Below, piece after piece: positions 2,314 through 12,058 of a stretch of DNA of 33,612 nucleotides. Source of the DNA: Candidatus Micrarchaeia archaeon (GTDB taxonomy: Archaea > Micrarchaeota > Micrarchaeia > Anstonellales > J096). The notes beneath the pieces are model-generated. The model was given only the letters and a program-made list of their open reading frames with translations. It was not told the origin of the DNA and did no database searches. Made by a program: the position numbers and the translations under genes. The stretch is taken from positions 1 to 33,612 of the forward strand of contig JBGQMB010000005.1 of NCBI GenBank assembly GCA_041500405.1. The letters run 5' to 3'. Numbering within the stretch: position 1 is the stretch's first letter; every line of letters starts with the position of its first letter.

Positions 2314-2883
2314 TCAGGCCTTTCTTGATATCCATTTTGCAAATGCGGCCAACGCCTTTCCCCTGTCGGAAATGGCATTCTTTTTCCTGTTTTCTTTGTC
2401 ATCCATCTCTGCAACTGTCTTGGAAAATCCGTCAGGGACGAAAATGGGGCCATAGCCGTAGCCTTCATTTCCCCTTCCCCTTGCGGATTCAGCAATCTTC
2501 CCGTTCACAATGCCGTCAAAAACCTTTACGCCGTTTTCGTCAGCATAGGCGATCGAACACTTGAAAAAAGCCTTCCTGCTGCTTTTTCCCTTCAATAGAT
2601 TGAGTATGCCGGCGCATCCTATCCTTTTGTAAACAAACGCGGAATAGGACCCAGGAAATCCGTTCAGCGCATCAACGAAAAGCCCGCTGTCGTCAAGGAA
2701 AAGCGGTTTTTTGACAGCGAGGTAAAGCCGCTCAGCGCTCTTGCGCGCTATTTCGGACGTGTCCTCCCCGCGCGGCTCATCATACTCAACCTCAAGATGT
2801 TCTATCTCAACCCCTTTCTGGCCAAGGATTTGCCTCGCATCCGCCAGCTTTTTCCTGTTGTGCGTGGCGAAAAGGAGTTTCAT
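2314..2883 (-). CDS. rdgB: non-canonical purine NTP pyrophosphatase (HAM1/ITPase family)
   Basis: FATHNRKK, DDSGLFVDALNGFPG, GYGYGPIF and SDRGKAL (SHR-like) motifs; ATGA overlap with glyS. Confidence 0.95.
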   Translation of the reverse strand: MKLLFATHNRKKLADARQILGQKGVEIEHLEVEYDEPRGEDTSEIARKSAERLYLAVKKPLFLDDSGLFVDALNGFPGSYSAFVYKRIGCAGILNLLKGKSSRKAFFKCSIAYADENGVKVFDGIVNGKIAESARGRGNEGYGYGPIFVPDGFSKTVAEMDDKENRKKNAISDRGKALAAFAKWISRKA

Positions 2884-4319
2884 ATTATCCTCTTTGAAAC
2901 TTCGGAGGAATTTATCCTTTCCTGCTTCATGCTTTCCCTGTCGCGGAGCGTGACAGTGCCTGAGCCAAGGACCTCATAGTCGACCGTTATTGAAACGGGT
3001 ATGCCCATCTCGTCAGCGCGGGCGTACCTCCTGCCTATGCTCCCTGTATCGCTGTAGAACACGGAACATCCTTTTGACGTCAATGCGTCCATGATTTCCT
3101 TTGCCTTTGCGTCCAATCCGTCCCTTCTTTCAAGCGGGAAAACGGCGACGTTGTACGGCGATATTTCCCTGCTTATGCTGAGCCACTCGTTCTCCCTTTG
3201 TTTTGAAGGTTCCCTGTATCCGTGGTCTATTATGCAGTAGAACAGCCTATCCAAGCCTATGGACGATTCAACGCAGTTCGGTATGACGTTTCCCTTCTCT
3301 GTTTGGAGCGTAAGGTTCTTTCCGGAAAACTTCTGGTGCCTTCCAAGGTCGTAGTCTGCCCTGTGCGCGTTGCTCATCACTTCAAGTATTCCGGCCTCTG
3401 TCTCAATCTCAACGTCGATGCTTACCTTTGAGTAGTGCGCCTTCTCGTCGTCCCTCAGATGCCTGAACCTCACCTTTGACATGTCAACGCCGGTCCTTTC
3501 CAAAATTTCCATGTCCATGCCAAGCAGCGAACCCAACGGCTTGTTTATCTTTCCGTCCTCAAAAAGCTTGCCTATCTTTATTTTTTTCAGCGTCTTCCCG
3601 TCCTGCGACATGAACGGTATTGCCTTGTCCTTGTATCTTTCGTAAATGTTGCAGTTGAAGTTGTTCGGGTCCACGAAATACTCAAGCTCAAGCTGGGAAA
3701 ACTCCCTTAGCCTCAAAAGGCCCTGCCTTGGGCTTATTTCGTTCCTGAAGACCTTGCCAAGCTGGCCTATGCCGAACGGAAGCTTCAGGCCAAGCGTCTT
3801 TGCGTTCCTTATCGTTGACGTGTAGATGCCCTGCGCGGTCTCTGGCCTCAAATATCCGGCCATTCCGCCGTAGCCTATCGTTGTGCTGAACATGAGATTG
3901 ACTTTCCTGAACTTTCCAAGGTCGCCTCCGCAAACCGGGCACTTGAGCTTGTGCTGGTTGTGGATGCTTTCGATGGTCTCCATCCTTCCGTCCCAGGGGA
4001 TGCCGAGTTTCTCTTCAATGAGCTTGTCCACCCTTATCACGGAATGGCATTTCAGGCATTCTCCCGCAGGGTCCGTGAACTCGTCAACGTGGCCAGAGGC
4101 TTTGTACATTATTTCCGGCCCCACTATCGTGGACTCGACCTCGTGGAATCCGGGCCTGTCTATGAAGACATTCCTCCACATCTCCACTATCCTTCTCTTT
4201 ATCCTTGCGCCTATCGGCCCGTAGTCGTAGAAGCCGGCGATGTTCTCGTAAATCTCGTTGCTCGGGTAAAAGTATCCCTTCTTGAAGCAGAAGTTGAGTA
4301 TTGCCTCGTATTTGCCCAT
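2880..4319 (-). CDS. glyS: glycine--tRNA ligase (alpha2, archaeal/eukaryotic type)
   Basis: GFYDYGPIG, ASGHVDEFTDP, YLRPETAQG, FRNEISPRQGLLRLREFSQLELE, SIGLDR, and anticodon domain SIGRRYARADEMG. Start 4319 has a GGTG RBS and TTTAAA ~25 nt upstream. Confidence 0.97.
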   Translation of the reverse strand: MGKYEAILNFCFKKGYFYPSNEIYENIAGFYDYGPIGARIKRRIVEMWRNVFIDRPGFHEVESTIVGPEIMYKASGHVDEFTDPAGECLKCHSVIRVDKLIEEKLGIPWDGRMETIESIHNQHKLKCPVCGGDLGKFRKVNLMFSTTIGYGGMAGYLRPETAQGIYTSTIRNAKTLGLKLPFGIGQLGKVFRNEISPRQGLLRLREFSQLELEYFVDPNNFNCNIYERYKDKAIPFMSQDGKTLKKIKIGKLFEDGKINKPLGSLLGMDMEILERTGVDMSKVRFRHLRDDEKAHYSKVSIDVEIETEAGILEVMSNAHRADYDLGRHQKFSGKNLTLQTEKGNVIPNCVESSIGLDRLFYCIIDHGYREPSKQRENEWLSISREISPYNVAVFPLERRDGLDAKAKEIMDALTSKGCSVFYSDTGSIGRRYARADEMGIPVSITVDYEVLGSGTVTLRDRESMKQERINSSEVSKRII

Positions 4320-4434
4320 GAAAACACCTTTGGCATCATGGCTTTTAAACAATTGTGCATCCGGTTTTCATTTTATACATCTTGCCACAAGGATACACTA
4401 TTTAAAAACCTTATTATAGATATATTATATCAGT

Positions 4435-7400
4435 ATGGCGCACATTGACTTTAAAAAAGCTTTTATATACAGTGCTATTGTTGCAGGACTGGCATCCAGC
4501 CCTGCCTACGCGAAGTACAAGGCAGTCGGTGAAAATATGGGAGATCAAACTGTTGTGGCGGGAACAACCCAGGTCATTGATTATAAGAAGGGAGCGAATT
4601 TCCTTTTCGGCAAATACGGCACTTTTGGAAAACTTACACTGAAGGACTATCTCGATTTCATAAAGGCGTTCAAGATAGACAGGGATGAGACATTCAGGGA
4701 AAATTTAGGCATAAAAACCGACAAGGACAGAAAGAATGTGCTTGCCATGCCGGCCCTGACGAAACAGGAGTTCGCGAGGCAGGAAATGACGACGACCGGA
4801 AAGGTCGTCCCGAAAAAGACGCTTGCTGGAATATCTGAAGGCGAAAAGGACTGGACTGTGGAATATTACCCTGCCGCCGGGCTGGCATCAGCGTCAGTCA
4901 CGCTCAGGTCTGTGTATGACAAAGCAGCGACCCTTTCGGCAGATGCATATAGCGCGCTGAGGGATTATGCCAACACGGCCAACGAATCCGGCGTTGCAAG
5001 CGATGCCGAGAAAAAGACCGTAGCCGTGACTGCAGTCATGCTTTACGGCGTAGACCAGTCATTGGTGCCGCAATATTTCGCTGCGGCAGAAAACCTAGCA
5101 GGGCTTTGCAGGAACCAGCCAAACGAATACAGAAAAGTAATGGACCGGCTGGCAGCCATGATAGACGCCAAGACTTCCGCAATCTATTCCAAAAACGTAG
5201 AGGCACAATTGCCCATACAAAAAACCTCGAGAAACATTTCCAATGCGCTTGGCGAAATATTCAGGCTTGGCGCAGAGGACATGTACAGGCTCAACAGGCT
5301 TAGCCTCATGGATAGGAATGTATATATAAACAACTATCCTCCTTACGAGATACGCCAGAAGGTATCCGGCTGGCAGCAAAACCTGCTTGAAGGCAGGATG
5401 GAATCCTGGCAAAGGTTCCAGCCGATATATCCGTTTCCGACTAGGATTTATCTGCCTATAGCCGGTTCTATGCCAAAAAGCGCAATAGGTGTCGATATAA
5501 GAGGCGGGGGAGGCATGCAATATGCCAACATTTGGAATTATTGGTCCCAATCCTGGGCAGGAAATGTGGGGACGTCAATCATAAACTACGTTTCCCCATC
5601 GCACCGCGTCAGCGGGGCTCATGGCAACCTGCCTGTAACGCTGATTTCCCCAATGGGAATATCCGGCCTTGTTGACAAAATACGCGCAGCATTCGTGGAA
5701 ACCGAGGCGCCATCGTATGGCTTGAAAGCCGTGGGCGCGGGCTTGTACAGCACAGGCAGCAAAGAAACCGGGGCTGGGGGCGTTGCTTCATACGCCACCA
5801 AAAGCGGAGGCCTGGCCGGAGGATTCAATGTGTCACCGGAAAATGAGCTTGATTTTGCGGGCCTGAACATGGTTGCGATACCGCTGGTTCCTGGCAAGGC
5901 CGCGGAGACAGTTGACCTGAAAACAGCCATTTCCTCGTATGATTCCGGTTCCAGCGCCCTGAAAGGGAGCATCAAGGCGGCATGGAAATCGGCATACAAG
6001 CAAAGCAATGAGCCGACTGACAAGATGGTAGAAGATGCCATGGAACGCACTTACTACAACCAGAAAAACAGTCCTGCAGACATGGCTTTCTGGAAAGGCA
6101 TAAATAAGGTCGTGAAAGGCCCTGTGCTTGCTGAGAATCCGGTACGCGCGGCAATAGAAGATTTCACAGTGGGCTGGGAAAAGACGGCGTATGAAACAAA
6201 AGAGGCGCTGCTTCAGTCCATCAGCGCAATCTACGGCAAGAACCCTAAGAATATCATACTCTTGGCAAGCAGCTCAGCCAACGAAACCAACCAATGGGCG
6301 GCTGGCAGGGCATACTTGATAACAAAGGATGCGCAGGTGTTTGAGCTGGCGGCTGGCTCAAGCTCGTTCAACAAAATGCTCAATTACATAGCAGGATACG
6401 GCAGCGACGAGGCTTTGCTTCCCAAAACATATGCCTGGAATGTGGAAAACCAGCTAAAGAAAGGCGGGGCCGTCATTGCCTTGGACCTTGGCACCGTTCC
6501 GATCCTGTTCCAATTCCAAGACTATCCTGGAGTTGGCAGCAACAGCAAGCTTGTGACATGGACAGCTGCGGGCGGGACAACGCGCGCTAAAAAGGGCGGC
6601 GAAACGGAGATTCACGAAATTTCGCTTCCAGGAACGCTGTATAATATAGGAAGCAGGGGCGAGGTCACGAGCCAGCACGCCAACTATGCATTAAGGCACT
6701 TTGAAGACAAGAAAAGGTGGGAATTTGACGCCGGAATCACTGCCGGCAAAAGCACGCTTGGGCTGGAAAGGAAGGCATTCCAAGGCACAGGGTTCCTCAT
6801 GAAGTGGGAACAGGGCGACATGGACAAGAGGGCGAGCATTTTGCAGCGCGGCTTCGGGCTCAGCATGCAAAGGCTTGGGGGACAAGCGCTGCAGCTTGCG
6901 GACAATTTTGCTGAAGACGTGAACAGCCTTTACCGCATATCAGGAACGCTGTATGGCTCAAAGTCGCCTGCCGGAAGCGACATGATAGTCGGCGGGCTTC
7001 TTCACGTTGTGGAACAGCTTAGGGGAGAGGTGGGCAACGACCGCTATGACGCGACACTTTTCAGGTTTGTTGGATTCTTAAGGGGTCTTAAGAACTGCGG
7101 AATGCTTGACGTCACGCGCTCATCCTGGATAGACAGGATGCTCGGCGACTTTGACGATATGCGCAGAAGTTCCGGGCAAAATCCGTATGCCACAGAAGCC
7201 CTTATGGACGAGTTCCAGAGAAAATACCTTGGAAATGTAAGGGCACTTATAGACAACTATTATCTGGGAGTCCAGCTGGACAGCGACTTTTCGGTCGAGT
7301 TCAGCATGCAGGCAAAAGAGAGCAGGGGTGACGACTGGACCGGCCAGATGGTTGAACGCGGGGCAGGGCGCATGCTGTACACATGGGACGGCGGTTTCGT

Positions 7401-8322
7401 TCGCGGCTACTGCCAGATGCCGATGCTTGATTATTTGTCTCCTATAGAAGGCCTAGTTGGAGCTGGAGCCGGATTCGACCTGTTCAAATCCGTCTGGCTT
7501 CCGCGTCTTGCGGCCGATGCAGGGGTCGTAACTGTCTCGGAAAAGCAGAGAGTGAGTGGTTTCGTCCAGGCCGGAGCGGAGGTTTACTCAGACATACTGG
7601 AGGATGCGGCCGCGTATAGGCGCCTTGTTTCGGATGAAACGCTGGCTTTGGAGGGCAAGTTCTCTGAGATACCAAAGAAAGCGCGCGAGGAGATTCTTGG
7701 CAATTTGAAGAATATCACAAAGGGAAAGAAGGCCGACCAGGAAATGAAGGACGCCATTTTCATTATTGAAATGGGTAAGGACGCAAAGGACGTTTCTTCA
7801 GTCCCGAAAGAGGTGAACAGGGCAGTAAAGGCCTGGTTTGCTGACGAAAAAGCAGAACTCCAGAAAAAATTCAACGGCCACACCCGCGTTTATGCAGGGG
7901 CAAGCCTTTATGGGCTTGGCCACGGCCAGTTCTACGGGGACATTGGGGCATTCGTTGAATATGCAGACCGCCTTAAGGCATATGTAATTGTCGCTCCTAG
8001 AAAGGAGGTTTCGGTGTATTTGGGCGCGGACTACGACTTTGACAGATCCCTTTCATTGGGCGTGATTGCCGGAGCCAGCCCAAAGGGGCTTAGCGGGGGC
8101 TTATCGTTCTCGGTGCCAGTGACAATAGCAGGCCACGAGGGCATTTTGAGGGCATACGGAGTCAGGACGACGCTTGGGGTCTTGCCGTATTCGCCGCCGT
8201 TCTCGTTTGCATACGAGTATTCAACCAGAAACGACTGGGTCTATGGGCTAGTGTGGACATGGGGGTTGAACCCGTTGAAGCCTACGCAAACACGTGAAAA
8301 ACAGCAAAGGTTCGGCAGGTGA
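4435..8322 (+). CDS. large secreted hypothetical protein (1295 aa), C-terminal two-thirds rich in amphipathic beta-strands
   Basis: Signal peptide MAHIDFKKAFIYSAIVAGLASSPAYA|K; uninterrupted ORF; many Gly/aromatic alternating segments such as TRVYAGASLYG, VSVYLGADYDF, LSGGLSFSV, WVYGLVWTWG. Confidence 0.85.
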   Translation: MAHIDFKKAFIYSAIVAGLASSPAYAKYKAVGENMGDQTVVAGTTQVIDYKKGANFLFGKYGTFGKLTLKDYLDFIKAFKIDRDETFRENLGIKTDKDRKNVLAMPALTKQEFARQEMTTTGKVVPKKTLAGISEGEKDWTVEYYPAAGLASASVTLRSVYDKAATLSADAYSALRDYANTANESGVASDAEKKTVAVTAVMLYGVDQSLVPQYFAAAENLAGLCRNQPNEYRKVMDRLAAMIDAKTSAIYSKNVEAQLPIQKTSRNISNALGEIFRLGAEDMYRLNRLSLMDRNVYINNYPPYEIRQKVSGWQQNLLEGRMESWQRFQPIYPFPTRIYLPIAGSMPKSAIGVDIRGGGGMQYANIWNYWSQSWAGNVGTSIINYVSPSHRVSGAHGNLPVTLISPMGISGLVDKIRAAFVETEAPSYGLKAVGAGLYSTGSKETGAGGVASYATKSGGLAGGFNVSPENELDFAGLNMVAIPLVPGKAAETVDLKTAISSYDSGSSALKGSIKAAWKSAYKQSNEPTDKMVEDAMERTYYNQKNSPADMAFWKGINKVVKGPVLAENPVRAAIEDFTVGWEKTAYETKEALLQSISAIYGKNPKNIILLASSSANETNQWAAGRAYLITKDAQVFELAAGSSSFNKMLNYIAGYGSDEALLPKTYAWNVENQLKKGGAVIALDLGTVPILFQFQDYPGVGSNSKLVTWTAAGGTTRAKKGGETEIHEISLPGTLYNIGSRGEVTSQHANYALRHFEDKKRWEFDAGITAGKSTLGLERKAFQGTGFLMKWEQGDMDKRASILQRGFGLSMQRLGGQALQLADNFAEDVNSLYRISGTLYGSKSPAGSDMIVGGLLHVVEQLRGEVGNDRYDATLFRFVGFLRGLKNCGMLDVTRSSWIDRMLGDFDDMRRSSGQNPYATEALMDEFQRKYLGNVRALIDNYYLGVQLDSDFSVEFSMQAKESRGDDWTGQMVERGAGRMLYTWDGGFVRGYCQMPMLDYLSPIEGLVGAGAGFDLFKSVWLPRLAADAGVVTVSEKQRVSGFVQAGAEVYSDILEDAAAYRRLVSDETLALEGKFSEIPKKAREEILGNLKNITKGKKADQEMKDAIFIIEMGKDAKDVSSVPKEVNRAVKAWFADEKAELQKKFNGHTRVYAGASLYGLGHGQFYGDIGAFVEYADRLKAYVIVAPRKEVSVYLGADYDFDRSLSLGVIAGASPKGLSGGLSFSVPVTIAGHEGILRAYGVRTTLGVLPYSPPFSFAYEYSTRNDWVYGLVWTWGLNPLKPTQTREKQQRFGR

Positions 8323-8370
8323 ACGCGCACAACGCAAGATTATTAAACAGTGCCCGATAGAGGGTATACC

Positions 8371-8748
8371 ATGAAATTCGAACTGATGGATGTGCTGTTT
8401 GTTGAAGCGAAAAAGGCGTCTGAACGCCCTCCTCAAAACATAGACTCCAAGATAGATATCAGGAATGTCGAAATAAGTGCGGGCAACCTTGTGATTGATT
8501 TTGTGTACTCGGCGGATTATATCACTGATGGCGGTTATATCAGGATAGGCGGCAGGGCGCTGTTCAGCGGCTCCGACACAAAGGCCGCGCTCGATAGCTG
8601 GAAAAAGACAAAAAGGATAGACGGCAAAGCTGGGAGCGACATAGTCAACGCAATCAACTACGGCTCTTCCCTCAATTCCGTATTTGTTGCGCGCGTGCTC
8701 AACATGGTGCCGCCGCTTGCGCCCCCGACAATAGAGCTCAAGAAGTGA
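8371..8748 (+). CDS. conserved archaeal hypothetical protein, possible SecB-like fold
   Basis: Four beta-strands then helices, ending ARVLNMVPPLAPPTIEL, reminiscent of SecB-type C-termini. ATG 8371 preferred to GTG 8350. Confidence 0.7.
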   Translation: MKFELMDVLFVEAKKASERPPQNIDSKIDIRNVEISAGNLVIDFVYSADYITDGGYIRIGGRALFSGSDTKAALDSWKKTKRIDGKAGSDIVNAINYGSSLNSVFVARVLNMVPPLAPPTIELKK

Positions 8749-8766
8749 GATTTGGATTTTGTAACC

Positions 8767-9264
8767 ATGGCCATGCATTTCCGTTCCGCGTTTCTGTGTG
8801 CCGCAACGGCGCTGTGCGTAGCCGGTGCGCCGAATGCGGCCAGGCTTGAGCAATTCAAGGGCGCATCTGAAACGGGCAAGACAGCATGGGCCGCAGAGAT
8901 TCTATCGTTGAAAGAAACCAAGAAGAGCATAAGGCCGGAAATGGGCCTGTGGCTTGTTCCAAAGGGATATTCCTACTCCACAGCAACAGGGGGAATCCAA
9001 AGGTCTAGATTTGATGAAGTGGAAACCATCCTCATAACCATAAACAGGATAAAGGAATTCGTTGAGGACCTAAAATTTGGCGGCTCCATAAAATCCAGGG
9101 AAACGGGAAAATGGTCCATATCCCTGAATGTCGGGATAGAAAAACGGAACGCAATCCTTTTCAGGTCTGTCATAATGGGCGAGCAGTATGTGCCGTTCAC
9201 CAAGCTTATTTCAGGCGTCCTTTTCTCGCCAAGGTTTGACGCTAACATTAAAGTGTATTTCTGA
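8767..9264 (+). CDS. secreted hypothetical protein with C-terminal beta-signal-like motif
   Basis: Signal-peptide-like MAMHFRSAFLCAATALCVAGAPNA; ends FDANIKVYF-stop. Confidence 0.7.
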   Translation: MAMHFRSAFLCAATALCVAGAPNAARLEQFKGASETGKTAWAAEILSLKETKKSIRPEMGLWLVPKGYSYSTATGGIQRSRFDEVETILITINRIKEFVEDLKFGGSIKSRETGKWSISLNVGIEKRNAILFRSVIMGEQYVPFTKLISGVLFSPRFDANIKVYF

Positions 9265-9265
9265 G

Positions 9266-12058
9266 CTATCCCTTGACTACGCCGAGCGGCCTTAGCTTCG
9301 CCACAATCCTGCTTATGCCGGCCAATTCAACGGACTTGACTATTTCGTCAATGTCCTTGTACGCGCCCGGCGCCTCCTCGGATGCCGCGGTCCTGGAATC
9401 TGACTTGAAGTAGATGTCATTTTTCGCAAGCTGCTTGACAACATTGTCGCTATTGAATTCCCTTATTGCGGCATGCCTGCTCAGCGCCCTTCCTGCGCCA
9501 TGGCACGTTGAGCCAAAGCTCACGTCAAGGCCCTTCTGCTCCCCGACCAAAACATAGCTTGCCGTTCCCATGGAGCCAGGTATTATGACAGGCTGGCCTG
9601 TTTTCCTGTACGCTGCCGGCAATTCCTCCCTTCCTGCAGGGAACGCCCTTGTCGCGCCTTTCCTATGGACAAGAACATTTGACTTTTTTCCATTGACATT
9701 GTGCTCCTCGTATTTCGCGATGTTGTGCGCAACGTCGTAAAGAAGCTCAAGCTCCGCATCCTTGAAAACCTTGCTGAATGCGGCCCTTACATTGTGGGTT
9801 ATCATCTGCCTGTTGACAAAAGCGAAGTTGACTGCGCATTTCATTGCTGAAATGTAATTGTCCGCAATATCGGTTCCCAGTTTCGCGTATGCCAGCTCCG
9901 GGTCCGGAATTCCCTCTGGCAGCCCTTCCTTCATTATCGCATTTATGTAATCGGAAGCTATCTGATGGCCGTATCCCCTTGAGCCTGTATGCACCATCAT
10001 CACTACCTGGTTCTCGAAAAGCCCGAAGCTTTTCGCTATCTCCGGGTATATTATTTTTTCCACATACTGGATTTCAAGGAAGTGATTTCCTGCGCCAAGC
10101 GTTCCGACCTGCCTTCTTCCCCTTGCCTTCGCAGTTGCGCTTATTTTTGAAACGTCCGCTCCGTCCATCCTTCCGTACTCCTCTATGCAGCCCTTCTCCT
10201 TTTTGTCGGCGTATCCCTTCTCTATTGCCCAGTCCACGCCAAGCTCCGCAAGAGAATCCAGCTCGTTAACAGACATCCTGTCCCTGCTCTCGCTTCCAAC
10301 TCCGCTTGGCACTTCCCTGAAAATTGACTCAACGATGTCGCGCTTCTTTGCCTCAATATCTTCCTTCTGCATCTCCGTCTTGAGAAGGCGGACCCCGCAG
10401 TTTGATACCAATATTCCGTTTCCTATAAACCGATGTATCCTCTCTATGCCAAAATCATATACCCGTCCGGAATATTTCTTTATGCCAATATCAAGAATTA
10501 TATCCTCAAATGCGCCATATCTTTTGTATATCTCTTTTTGATATTTTTCGAATTCATTAAAGCTTTGAACATTTAATGGCGCTCTTGGAGAAACGTTTTC
10601 ATAATATGCCCTTTCTACGAATCTGGGATTTGCCCATTTTGAAGCAAGCTTCTTTTGGGCATTTTTCAGGCTAATTCCGGCTTTTTTATATTCTTGTGCT
10701 TTTTTTCTTATTTCTTCCCTTTTTTGCCGATGCAGCCTCTTCATTCTTATGTAAAGAACAGCCGCAAGCGCTTTGAGCATCCTTTCCTTATTATACTCAA
10801 AACCTATTCTTGAATAAACTTTTTCTATATTTTTTTCGCTGCTGTCGAGCATAATCCTTAGTCTGATTTTTGATCTTATCTGTTCAACAAAGCTTACTTT
10901 TTTCGTTTTGATCCCAAACTCATCAAGCATTTTCGAGATGCTATTAAAAAATTGCCTAAGGTTTCCTTCTCTGGATTTTATCTTGTTTTGGCTGATTTGC
11001 GGCATATAAAACCCAGTTTTACTTGAAGTTTTTGGGGACGACATTTCTGCGCCAAAAAATGCGGCAAGATACAGCCTTTTTATCCACAGCGGCGCTTTCA
11101 TTATCCATTGGGGCACTTTAATATCCTTGTTTGTTTTTACTCCTTCCACACAGCCCAATTCCAGCATTTTTTCAGCAAACTCTTTGGAATATACCACAAG
11201 TTCGGATGCTGTTGATACAAATTTTTTTCCGCGTATGCTGTGTTTTCTGGTTCTTTCAAATATAGTTCCATGATATCCTAGCTTTTTTATATCCTTTAAT
11301 ATATCCTCAAGGTCATTCCTGTATTTGCTATAAAACGAGACTCTTCTTTTGCCATTGTTTGAGGATATGCTGCCGTCACCTGTGTTATATCCTATAAGTT
11401 TAGCGTAAATTGCCAAGTCATTCTCATTTTTGCAGTATTTCCTGTAAGGCGCCCCTTCAAAAGGATAGGACAATACTAGATCATTCCTTTTCAAATTTTT
11501 AGGCAGCTTCTTTCCATTTTTTGTGATAATCGGGTGATCCGGAGTGACTTCTATCTCTCCAGCCATCGTCATTATTTTGTATATCTTTCCAGAATATCTT
11601 TTATGCATGAAATGCGTCGCTTTTCCGCATTCCTTTCCGCTATTTATTCTTATATTTCCACCAAACAACAAAACCCCATTTTTTTCATGTTTTTTTGAAA
11701 AGCAGGGTTCATAATCTTCAATCTTCCTATAATATCCGTATTCGCTTATTATTCTTGTTTTTGAGACTAAGCAGTTAATGTCGTAGCCTACGCCGCCAGG
11801 CGAAACAATGCCTTCCTCCTTGTCAAAGGCGGCGACTCCGCCGATGGGGAAGCCGTAGCCCTCGTGGCCGTCGGGCATCAAAACGGCGTTCTTCACAATG
11901 CCCGGAAGCGATGCCATGTTCCTTAGCTGGCCGATTGTCCTGTCCTTGCTCATAGCGTCAACTAGCGGCTTTGTCCCTATTATTAATGCAGGCACCCTCA
12001 TTATGCCTTCCTTTTCCATGAGCCATGTCGCGTTGCCAATGTCCTTGAACTTGGGCAT
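9266..12058 (-). CDS. rtcB: tRNA-splicing ligase RtcB, intein-containing precursor
   Basis: MPDGHEGYGFPIGG, GVGYDIN|CGVR, GTLGAGNHFLE, HTGSRGYGH, HRKGAT, STCHGAGR, EEAPGAYK, LRPLGVVKG; ~472-aa exteins plus a 458-aa insertion. Confidence 0.97.
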   Translation of the reverse strand: MPKFKDIGNATWLMEKEGIMRVPALIIGTKPLVDAMSKDRTIGQLRNMASLPGIVKNAVLMPDGHEGYGFPIGGVAAFDKEEGIVSPGGVGYDINCLVSKTRIISEYGYYRKIEDYEPCFSKKHEKNGVLLFGGNIRINSGKECGKATHFMHKRYSGKIYKIMTMAGEIEVTPDHPIITKNGKKLPKNLKRNDLVLSYPFEGAPYRKYCKNENDLAIYAKLIGYNTGDGSISSNNGKRRVSFYSKYRNDLEDILKDIKKLGYHGTIFERTRKHSIRGKKFVSTASELVVYSKEFAEKMLELGCVEGVKTNKDIKVPQWIMKAPLWIKRLYLAAFFGAEMSSPKTSSKTGFYMPQISQNKIKSREGNLRQFFNSISKMLDEFGIKTKKVSFVEQIRSKIRLRIMLDSSEKNIEKVYSRIGFEYNKERMLKALAAVLYIRMKRLHRQKREEIRKKAQEYKKAGISLKNAQKKLASKWANPRFVERAYYENVSPRAPLNVQSFNEFEKYQKEIYKRYGAFEDIILDIGIKKYSGRVYDFGIERIHRFIGNGILVSNCGVRLLKTEMQKEDIEAKKRDIVESIFREVPSGVGSESRDRMSVNELDSLAELGVDWAIEKGYADKKEKGCIEEYGRMDGADVSKISATAKARGRRQVGTLGAGNHFLEIQYVEKIIYPEIAKSFGLFENQVVMMVHTGSRGYGHQIASDYINAIMKEGLPEGIPDPELAYAKLGTDIADNYISAMKCAVNFAFVNRQMITHNVRAAFSKVFKDAELELLYDVAHNIAKYEEHNVNGKKSNVLVHRKGATRAFPAGREELPAAYRKTGQPVIIPGSMGTASYVLVGEQKGLDVSFGSTCHGAGRALSRHAAIREFNSDNVVKQLAKNDIYFKSDSRTAASEEAPGAYKDIDEIVKSVELAGISRIVAKLRPLGVVKG
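10400..11773 (-). mobile_element. intein with LAGLIDADG homing endonuclease in rtcB
   Basis: Begins CLVSKTRI after GYDIN; block B IEVTPDHPI; LAGLIDADG-like LIGYNTGDGS and LAAFFGAEMS; block F/G VYDFGIERIHRFIGNGILVSN followed by extein Cys; visibly AT-rich against the flanks. Confidence 0.95.

Follow-up and report, generated by a model that had tools for sequence, protein, structure and literature searches.

Within a 33,612-nucleotide stretch of contig JBGQMB010000005.1, from a Candidatus Micrarchaeia archaeon (assembly GCA_041500405.1) and hereafter called the window, we describe a two-gene module. Its first gene encodes a giant exported protein, modelled as ending in a very large antiparallel beta-barrel-like domain, and its second a small cytoplasmic protein with a predicted SecB-like fold. 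We hypothesize that the small protein serves the giant one as a chaperone, that the giant protein leaves the cell through the Sec pathway, and that it then folds by itself into a large barrel acting as a pore or conduit. We hold this whole chain tentatively, at a little short of an even chance.

In textbooks, membrane beta-barrels and SecB mark out diderm bacteria and the organelles that descend from them. To our knowledge, neither is established in archaea, and we know of no chaperone for post-translational Sec export in archaea. Our literature search found no paper joining Micrarchaeota with beta-barrels and none on archaeal SecB-like export chaperones. The portion available of the text on DPANN archaea and SecB mentions bacterial SecB only, and the available parts of the literature on SecB-like proteins in archaea deal nearly all with toxin-antitoxin systems or phage defence. 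The pairing of a barrel-like giant with a SecB-fold partner is described in no paper on archaea that we found.

The first-pass annotation of this DNA had pointed to three co-oriented, closely spaced genes, and these are present as tightly packed open reading frames on the + strand, at 4435-8322 (1295 amino acids), 8350-8748 and 8752-9264. We place the start of the middle gene at the ATG at 8371, because 16 aligned homologues begin MKLEF; the distance from the stop of the giant gene to this ATG is 48 nucleotides. The third gene is taken to start at 8773 because its database record has 163 amino acids. The parts of the module on which the argument turns are the following.

4435..8322, + strand: gene for the giant exported protein, 1295 amino acids, 141.8 kDa, isoelectric point (pI) 8.7
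6142..8265, + strand: beta-rich region conserved in the family, residues 570-1277, with 33 predicted antiparallel strands and helical inserts
8371..8748, + strand: gene for the small protein, 125 amino acids, cytoplasmic and of predicted SecB fold, with GAGGG 7 nucleotides before the ATG

The linkage of the first two genes is strict. When the small protein was searched by tblastn over 16 relative loci of the giant gene, a homologue was matched in all 16. In 15 of the 15 complete loci, the gene immediately following the giant gene, in the same orientation, encodes a full-length homologue (28-53% identity); the 16th, which stops at a contig edge, contains the first 47 residues of the small protein. 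Across six loci of 12-16 kb that we compared, the giant and small genes were the sole conserved genes. The third gene was absent by tblastn from all 16 relative loci, where varied genes come after the pair. Thus, the proposed three-gene linkage stands for the giant and small genes and fails for the third, and we consider the core to be a two-gene module (operon).

A word-indexed protein search with the giant protein returned two proteins, itself and one partial Micrarchaeota protein. An exhaustive HMMER search with residues 96-1295 recovered a family of 45 clusters at 50% identity (36 with E <= 1e-30), whose members are mostly 1500-2200 amino acids long and have in common the region of residues ~573-1285. 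All named members that we read come from Candidatus Micrarchaeota or Micrarchaeia. The family occurs in 17 of 301 sampled genomes of the phylum, namely 16 of the 65 genomes of a sister family (f6) and the genome studied here; the other genomes of the window's own family (f1) have none (0/13). The small proteins linked to giant genes form a subfamily (E < 1e-50) found in 16 genomes, all of them within these 17.

In a maximum-likelihood tree, the linked small copies form one clade (96/99), separate from the housekeeping copies of the same protein, and the window's copy groups with three closely related metagenomic sequences, the sister group being G109 and P0056 (97/98). The closest f6 relative of the giant protein, at 40% identity, is also found in G109. 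Given the strict adjacency, the co-occurrence and this same nearest f6 relative, we consider that the two genes travel and evolve together. The distribution of the pair suggests lateral transfer or repeated loss: the module here looks acquired from, or shared with, the f6 lineage, though it may instead have been lost in the other f1 genomes.

We modelled residues 96-1295 of the giant protein with AlphaFold2, in a single model run from a 48-sequence alignment, and judged the model by its strand assignments, confidence scores and structural matches rather than by inspection of the coordinates. The model has a mean predicted local distance difference test score (pLDDT) of 76.8 and a predicted template modelling score (pTM) of 0.68, with mean pLDDT across the five models of 68-77; over most strands the pLDDT is 80-95, and many 10-residue blocks of the beta region exceed 85. 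Residues ~110-295 are modelled as helices, in agreement with the helical N-terminal part proposed in the first-pass annotation. After them come a segment with little structure, a small four-stranded, Gly-rich sheet at 432-486 and more helices. From residue 570 onwards the model contains 33 antiparallel strands, with long helical inserts at ~898-931 and ~1055-1146. In total there are 37 antiparallel strands of 8-16 residues, joined by turns of mostly 2-8 residues, which bears out the earlier claim of more than 20 short strands with tight turns and helical inserts. Of the nine segments quoted for that claim, eight fall on predicted strands and one (RGFGLSMQR) does so only partly.

Structural searches with this model pointed to membrane barrels. 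Foldseek returned nothing at E <= 1e-3, and its list was led by the ApoB100 beta-belt (E 1.9e-3), LptD, TonB-dependent transporters, BamA and MOMP, with low template modelling (TM) scores. In a VIA-align search of 48,161 representative chains, 46 reached Z >= 8, and the best 50 matches, which are those listed, were all membrane beta-barrels of outer-membrane or organellar type, with Z from 14.5 to 7.9. FecA (1kmo) came first, at Z 14.5 with a root-mean-square deviation (rmsd) of 9.6 Å over 372 residues, followed by FemA (13.3), chitoporin (13.2), HasR (13.1), OccD3 (13.0), MtrB (11.7; rmsd 5.3 Å over 282 residues) and FimD (11.5); Tom40, VDAC and Deinococcus SlpA (9.9) were also among the best 50. 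Because the typical best Z in the VIA-align benchmark is 7-8 for models without a clear Foldseek match, we regard a Z of 14.5 and so homogeneous a match list as meaningful. The matches span model residues ~190-887, and the last third of the protein is barely covered. A search of the ESM Atlas with residues 573-1295 reached a top score of 0.86 and gave no lead.

Sequence features of the giant protein fit export without anchoring. Read by eye, its N-terminus, MAHIDFKK-AFIYSAIVAGLASSPAYA followed by KYK, is laid out n-h-c like a Sec type I signal peptide and has an A-x-A site, here A-Y-A before K27, in agreement with the claim of a type I signal peptide made earlier. The C-terminal membrane anchor, which the first pass had already reported as lacking, was sought with 19-residue Kyte-Doolittle windows; all were below 1.6, and the maximum past residue 40 was 1.27. 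The protein contains three Cys residues and five N-x-S/T sequons in its 1295 residues.

Next, we considered the two faces of the strands for signs of a lipid-facing belt, and obtained a mixed picture. In the window's protein, 16 of the 37 strands contain a 9-residue stretch in which at least four of five alternate positions are hydrophobic and the face is free of charge, and 11 of the last 15 strands pass this test. The family alignment shows a sharp alternation, one strand face being hydrophobic and the other carrying charged residues conserved at 80-90%, of which R571, R625, E637 and D684 are examples; such charges, conserved on one face, fit a barrel lumen. At the level of the family, we asked for one face with 60% or more hydrophobic and no more than 10% charged residues; 14 of 33 strands qualify, seven of the last eight among them. 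The density of membrane-strand-like windows is 3.0 per 100 amino acids for residues 570-1295, a value that is uninformative because six E. coli outer-membrane proteins (OMPs), at 1.7-3.2, fall inside the range of 64 other E. coli K-12 proteins (0-4.8).

The small protein has neither a signal peptide nor a hydrophobic segment. Its single-sequence AlphaFold2 model (pLDDT 64) consists of four strands and then two helices, and the ten top Foldseek matches were all SecB or the SecB-like Rv1957 (best E 5.9e-3, TM 0.30-0.44). VIA-align placed 2o2a first, with Z 8.5 (rmsd 4.0 Å, 109 of 125 residues), then Rv1957 (7.1) and E. coli SecB (6.5), with unrelated folds next at Z <= 6.2. We take 2o2a to be the structure of a DUF1149 protein, and a protein-language search returned DUF1149 at 0.90 among clusters of archaeal hypothetical proteins of ~130 amino acids. 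These matches lend modest support to a SecB-like fold for the small protein.

Assembly was predicted with four copies and a 16-row alignment, in three runs with three controls. Each of the three runs gave a four-copy score of 0.83, the best control scoring 0.00; partner pLDDT was 85-86, and the runs agreed in at least 90% of their contacts. In calibration, 20 of 30 proteins whose structures are pairs reached the mark for this score, as did one of 23 solved as single chains; that calibration was made with two copies and other alignments, unlike our four-copy run. One pair of copies is predicted to meet through antiparallel beta1-beta1 pairing (residues 7-15) and the long helix, and another pair through helix-helix packing of residues 93-121; these are the contacts of the SecB dimer of dimers in its crystal structures. 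Since the interfaces are as in SecB, resemblance to SecB structures already solved may account for part of this result. With both the fold matches and the predicted SecB-like tetramer pointing the same way, the earlier call of a SecB-like neighbour holds up.

The similarity to SecB is confined to structure. The SecB profile PF02556 matched none of 16 small-protein members at E <= 10, no SecB match was found in NCBIfam, and a profile of the small family had no match in the PDB at E <= 10. The small-protein family occurs in 280 of the 301 sampled genomes of the phylum, in 1-3 copies each. This genome's second copy, of 134 amino acids (G000:C4:18168-18521; L038 1480-1884, - strand), lies beside a gene that we read from its sequence as the DNA primase small subunit PriS. 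The protein-language search also returned similar clusters of ~130 amino acids in Thermoplasmatota, Microcaldota and Methanobacteriota, and there may be a widespread, uncharacterised archaeal family with the SecB fold. In the genome G066 (L041 14648-15109), a third, divergent SecB-fold paralogue (hhalign probability 97.9) lies 20 nucleotides upstream of a gene with a SecD/SecF domain (PF02355), on the same strand. A like paralogue in G233 (C20:4866-5231) is ~630 bases from a SecD/SecF-domain match, by match coordinates. Adjacency to SecD/SecF as a general rule was rejected, as it was seen, among the copies with coordinates listed, in two genomes of one genus only.

The two proteins can be compared with known systems. 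Like OMP barrels (TonB-dependent transporters, OccD/chitoporin/maltoporin, FimD, MtrB, LptD, Tom40/VDAC and SlpA), the giant protein combines a Sec signal peptide with, in its model, a long run of next-neighbour antiparallel strands joined by short turns, the strands being amphipathic and rich in Gly and aromatic residues; like plugged or tethered barrels, it has a non-barrel N-terminal part ahead of the predicted barrel. Unlike them, it shows no sequence relation to OMP families, has no terminal aromatic beta-signal, and comes from an archaeon with an S-layer gene, no Omp85/BamA gene and no known outer membrane. It also differs from most barrels in having many more strands (33-37 in the model) and three helical inserts. 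The small protein, as predicted, shares with SecB (E. coli and H. influenzae) and the SecB-like fold (M. tuberculosis Rv1957, DUF1149) a four-stranded sheet followed by a long helix, a dimer of dimers built through beta1 and the long helix, a length of ~125-155 residues and a cytoplasmic location; as with dedicated SecB-like chaperones, its gene adjoins that of a large exported beta-rich client. In contrast to SecB, it has no detectable sequence similarity to that family, a basic tail in place of the acidic SecA-binding tail and no SecA in its genome, and its own family occurs throughout much of an archaeal phylum (280 of 301 sampled genomes).

Our model would run as follows. The first gene would provide a 142-kDa protein with a Sec signal, a helical N-terminal part and a very large antiparallel beta-barrel-like domain, and the second a small cytoplasmic protein with the SecB fold and dimer-of-dimers assembly. 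In the cytoplasm, the SecB-fold tetramer would stop the precursor, which is long, rich in beta structure and prone to aggregate, from folding and hand it to SecYEG, making export post-translational. Outside the cell, the giant protein would fold without an insertase of the beta-barrel assembly machinery (BAM) type, and would serve at the cell surface as a large pore or conduit. As no outer membrane is known in these archaea, the most plausible site would be a lipid membrane encountered at cell-cell contact. From the models and the linkage, the small protein is probably the export chaperone of the giant protein. What the analysis establishes is the two genes, their family, linkage and co-occurrence, and the predictions of both folds and of the tetramer; chaperone action, self-insertion and membrane location are what we infer.

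In its full form, a lipid-embedded archaeal barrel made without BAM, the model would combine a SecB-type tetramer, SecYEG export without SecA, and self-insertion into a host or partner membrane or into an unrecognised outer layer; we find this doubtful. If true, it would amount to the long-sought conduit between DPANN archaea and their hosts, or to a barrel in an unrecognised outer layer, and it would be an archaeal counterpart, independently arisen, of the bacterial route from SecB to OMPs. A chaperone role, if true, would also be relevant to archaeal protein export generally, given the presence of the family in 280 of 301 genomes. The module supplies two clonable proteins with which to ask whether archaea have a SecB-type export chaperone and whether a giant barrel folds and inserts without BAM, and it bears on what DPANN cells use for connecting to other cells.

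Several observations weigh against this model. All the structural evidence is prediction, and the rmsd to real barrels is high (5-10 Å). The giant protein shows no sequence similarity to OMP families, nor the small protein to SecB, and neither resembles a solved structure in sequence: OMP families of Pfam matched none of 25 giant-family members at E <= 0.01, and the giant-family profile searched against PDB sequences reached E 0.078 at best, with chains that are not OMPs. A terminal aromatic beta-signal is missing: the last strand, WVYGLVWTWG, is followed by 18 polar residues that end in RFGR. The hydrophobic faces are weakest in the part that best matches porins (residues ~606-951); the charge-free test is passed by four of 18 strands between residues 606 and 900, and the family-level test by one of ten between 704 and 897. 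The tail of the small protein is basic, with PPxxPPTIKF and then a Lys-rich end, and the ancestral role of its family need not be export, because the family is present in 280 of 301 genomes. An Omp85/BamA match (PF01103) was found neither in this genome, which is 86% complete, nor in five barrel-bearing relatives (0/5), at E <= 1; the same model matched 8 of 14 known genomes used as controls, in 7 of them above its cut-off. The search for BamA-type insertases suggested in the first pass thus came back empty in these six genomes. There was also no SecA_DEAD match in this genome. Without Omp85/BamA and SecA, insertion and the docking partner of the chaperone are left unexplained. The outer-membrane-like pattern originally proposed is therefore supported by prediction in one part, the C-terminal ~700 residues, for which the model gives an antiparallel barrel or sheet of OMP type and very large size whose best 50 matches are membrane barrels, and fails in another, as the beta-signal, Omp85/BamA and an OMP-family sequence match are all missing.

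The cell envelope speaks in the same direction. The genome encodes, on contig C2 (4666-7296; L048 667-3297), a separate acidic-looking S-layer protein of 876 amino acids with an S_layer_C match of 51 bits. The one cultured Micrarchaeon, Ca. Micrarchaeum harzensis, is reported to have an S-layer and not an outer membrane, and the two layers seen in early ARMAN tomograms correspond in it to membrane plus S-layer (10.1101/2021.04.28.441871). This weakens the idea of a second membrane, which the first-pass annotation had entertained; with a canonical S-layer-type protein encoded here as well, we do not retain it. The same preprint gives Micrarchaeota S-layer proteins a pI of 4-6 and many N-glycosylation sites. 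We also rejected the giant protein as the main S-layer protein, because the genome encodes the separate S_layer_C protein. The giant protein is like SLP_Mh (of PF05123/PF05124 types; 10.1101/2021.04.28.441871) in being large and secreted with an N-terminal signal sequence, and unlike it in having no PF05123 or PF05124 match in Pfam, in being basic rather than acidic, and in having few sequons. A PF05123 search for an S-layer protein gave no match. The N-terminus of the 876-amino-acid protein resembles that of a partial frame of 804 amino acids that lies ~3.6 kb from the module in another genome (G244, L044).

The giant protein might instead be a non-membrane envelope protein, a water-exposed barrel or sheet with a structural, adhesive or sieve-like role within or beneath the S-layer; its hydrophobic faces would then pack onto its own helical inserts or onto adjacent subunits rather than meet lipid. 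We consider this unlikely, though a serious contender: the middle strands carry polar residues on both faces, three helical inserts could cover the hydrophobic ones, beta-signal, BAM and a known outer membrane are all lacking, and giant secreted proteins that evolve fast and replace one another at a single locus, with the leader conserved, behave like surface proteins. Against it, the best 50 structural matches are membrane barrels with no soluble fold among them, a lumen explains charges conserved on one face more readily than an exposed surface does, the genome has a canonical S-layer gene besides, and a pI of 8.7 with five sequons is unlike Micrarchaeota S-layer proteins as described (10.1101/2021.04.28.441871). 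A lipid-binding or lipid-transfer protein, whose amphipathic sheet would wrap or channel host lipids in the manner of the ApoB/vitellogenin beta-belts or LptD, seems improbable to us. It would account for the amphipathic strands with one conserved hydrophobic face, and for a Foldseek list that starts with the ApoB100 beta-belt (E 1.9e-3) and includes LptD, vitellogenin and a second ApoB100; many DPANN archaea are reportedly unable to make their own membrane lipids. Yet those matches, at TM 0.06-0.15 and rmsd 30-60 Å, reflect little beyond a long beta meander, and VIA-align favours closed barrels of porin and TonB type. Very improbable, finally, is a modelling artefact in which AlphaFold2, misled by repetitive Gly/aromatic hairpins, builds a barrel absent in the real protein. 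The alignment is shallow (48 sequences) and the run was single; however, the pLDDT of 80-95 over most strands and the mean of 68-77 across five models speak for the fold, and the family-wide alternation of conservation independently supports long amphipathic strands.

A further alternative concerns the second gene only and would fit any reading of the first. The small protein may not be the export chaperone of the giant protein and may instead be a specialised paralogue of a housekeeping protein, with, for example, an assembly, regulatory or quality-control role. Most members of its family, which 280 of 301 genomes carry, are not near giant genes; PriS, as read from sequence, is the neighbour of the second copy in this genome; there is no SecB sequence match and no SecA for docking; and the fold scores are modest (Z 6.5-8.5, model pLDDT 64). 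Set against this are the strict adjacency, the co-occurrence in 16 of 17 genomes, the same nearest f6 relative for both genes, the SecB-like geometry of the predicted tetramer, and a further paralogue just upstream of secF in two genomes of one genus, and we judge this alternative rather unlikely.

The remaining features of the locus are given below.

4393..4434, + strand: conserved upstream block with the A/T-rich TATA-like element TTTAAAAA, 26-33 nucleotides before the ATG (from sequence and the match to L004)
4435..4512, + strand: signal peptide covering residues 1-26; A-Y-A precedes the predicted cleavage (K27 next), as read from the sequence
4513..4551, + strand: conserved post-leader motif KYKAVGENMGDQT, with the family pattern [KR][FY]K-x(6-8)-M-[APG], from the N-termini of the family and of neighbouring secreted proteins
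4555..4836, + strand: N-terminal repeat region, residues 41-134, common to two other proteins of the genome
8266..8319, + strand: polar C-terminal tail after the last strand, ending RFGR
8773..9264, + strand: third gene, a secreted orphan of 163 amino acids ending KVYF, outside the conserved module

We regard the block at 4393..4434 as the probable archaeal promoter of the module, its function being suggested by sequence. A near-identical block precedes an unrelated giant gene at the same locus of a related Micrarchaeia genome (L004), whose flanking GlyRS and RtcB are 87% and 81% identical to those of the window. Between L004 7880-8117 and window 4393-4551 the two loci share the TATA-like block and a 39-residue leader; residues 1-39 are 77% identical, and the bodies of the two proteins are unrelated. 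After ...GENMGD, L004 continues into an unrelated protein of 1385 amino acids with an OMP-like ...VYFKLTF end and no adjacent SecB-like gene. The difference looks as if one cassette had replaced another while promoter and export leader stayed in place. In the f6 loci (L039-L044), several different secreted proteins whose genes precede the giant gene have a leader of this type together with the motif [KR]FK-x(6-8)-M-[AP]. Other proteins of the f6 clusters and several database homologues start exactly at the motif Met (MAxP...), with neither an in-frame start nor a signal peptide upstream; these may be alternative starts, gene-calling errors or two forms of the protein.

The region of residues 41-134 holds a repeat of ~45 residues with the pattern Y-K/R-x-G-A-x-x-L-F ... 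D-D-Y-Y-x-Y-L ... F ... L-G. The repeat also occurs in two large proteins of this genome, from open frames of 589 and 1079 amino acids (L003 898-2658; L002), at least one of which has no signal peptide, and a Pfam search with it gave no match. At the other end, the tails of the relatives are 20-30 residues long, rich in Pro and Gly and frequently closed by a terminal Arg; a PEFG before the last strand in relatives is regarded as coincidental. Sorting of the giant-protein tail by an archaeosortase was rejected, there being no hydrophobic 19-residue window, no NCBIfam sorting signal and no archaeosortase/exosortase (PF09721) match in this genome. With Pfam and NCBIfam, the giant protein matched no family at E <= 1, the three proteins together gave nothing usable, the only row being a pilin model at E 0.25 for the third protein, and a Pfam search with 25 family members and the L004 protein gave two sub-threshold rows only.

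The third protein has a signal peptide and two close relatives only, at 78% and 69% identity. The first-pass annotation had called it a beta-signal protein, a label for which its ...NIKVYF end is the one feature that fits, and we have dropped it. A metagenome locus matching the third gene proved to be a bacterial PP2C phosphatase region and was taken as a chance match.

On one side, the three genes are flanked by a class II tRNA synthetase gene (2880-4352, - strand), which we read as glycyl-tRNA synthetase (GlyRS), Pfam giving the class II core and anticodon-binding domains only. The other flank is the gene for the RtcB tRNA ligase (9266-12058, - strand; 930 amino acids), which is split by an intein with a LAGLIDADG homing-endonuclease domain, as it is at the L004 locus. 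The genomic stretch was present in five sequencing runs, with no RNA dataset among the runs that matched it; all five are sediment metagenomes.

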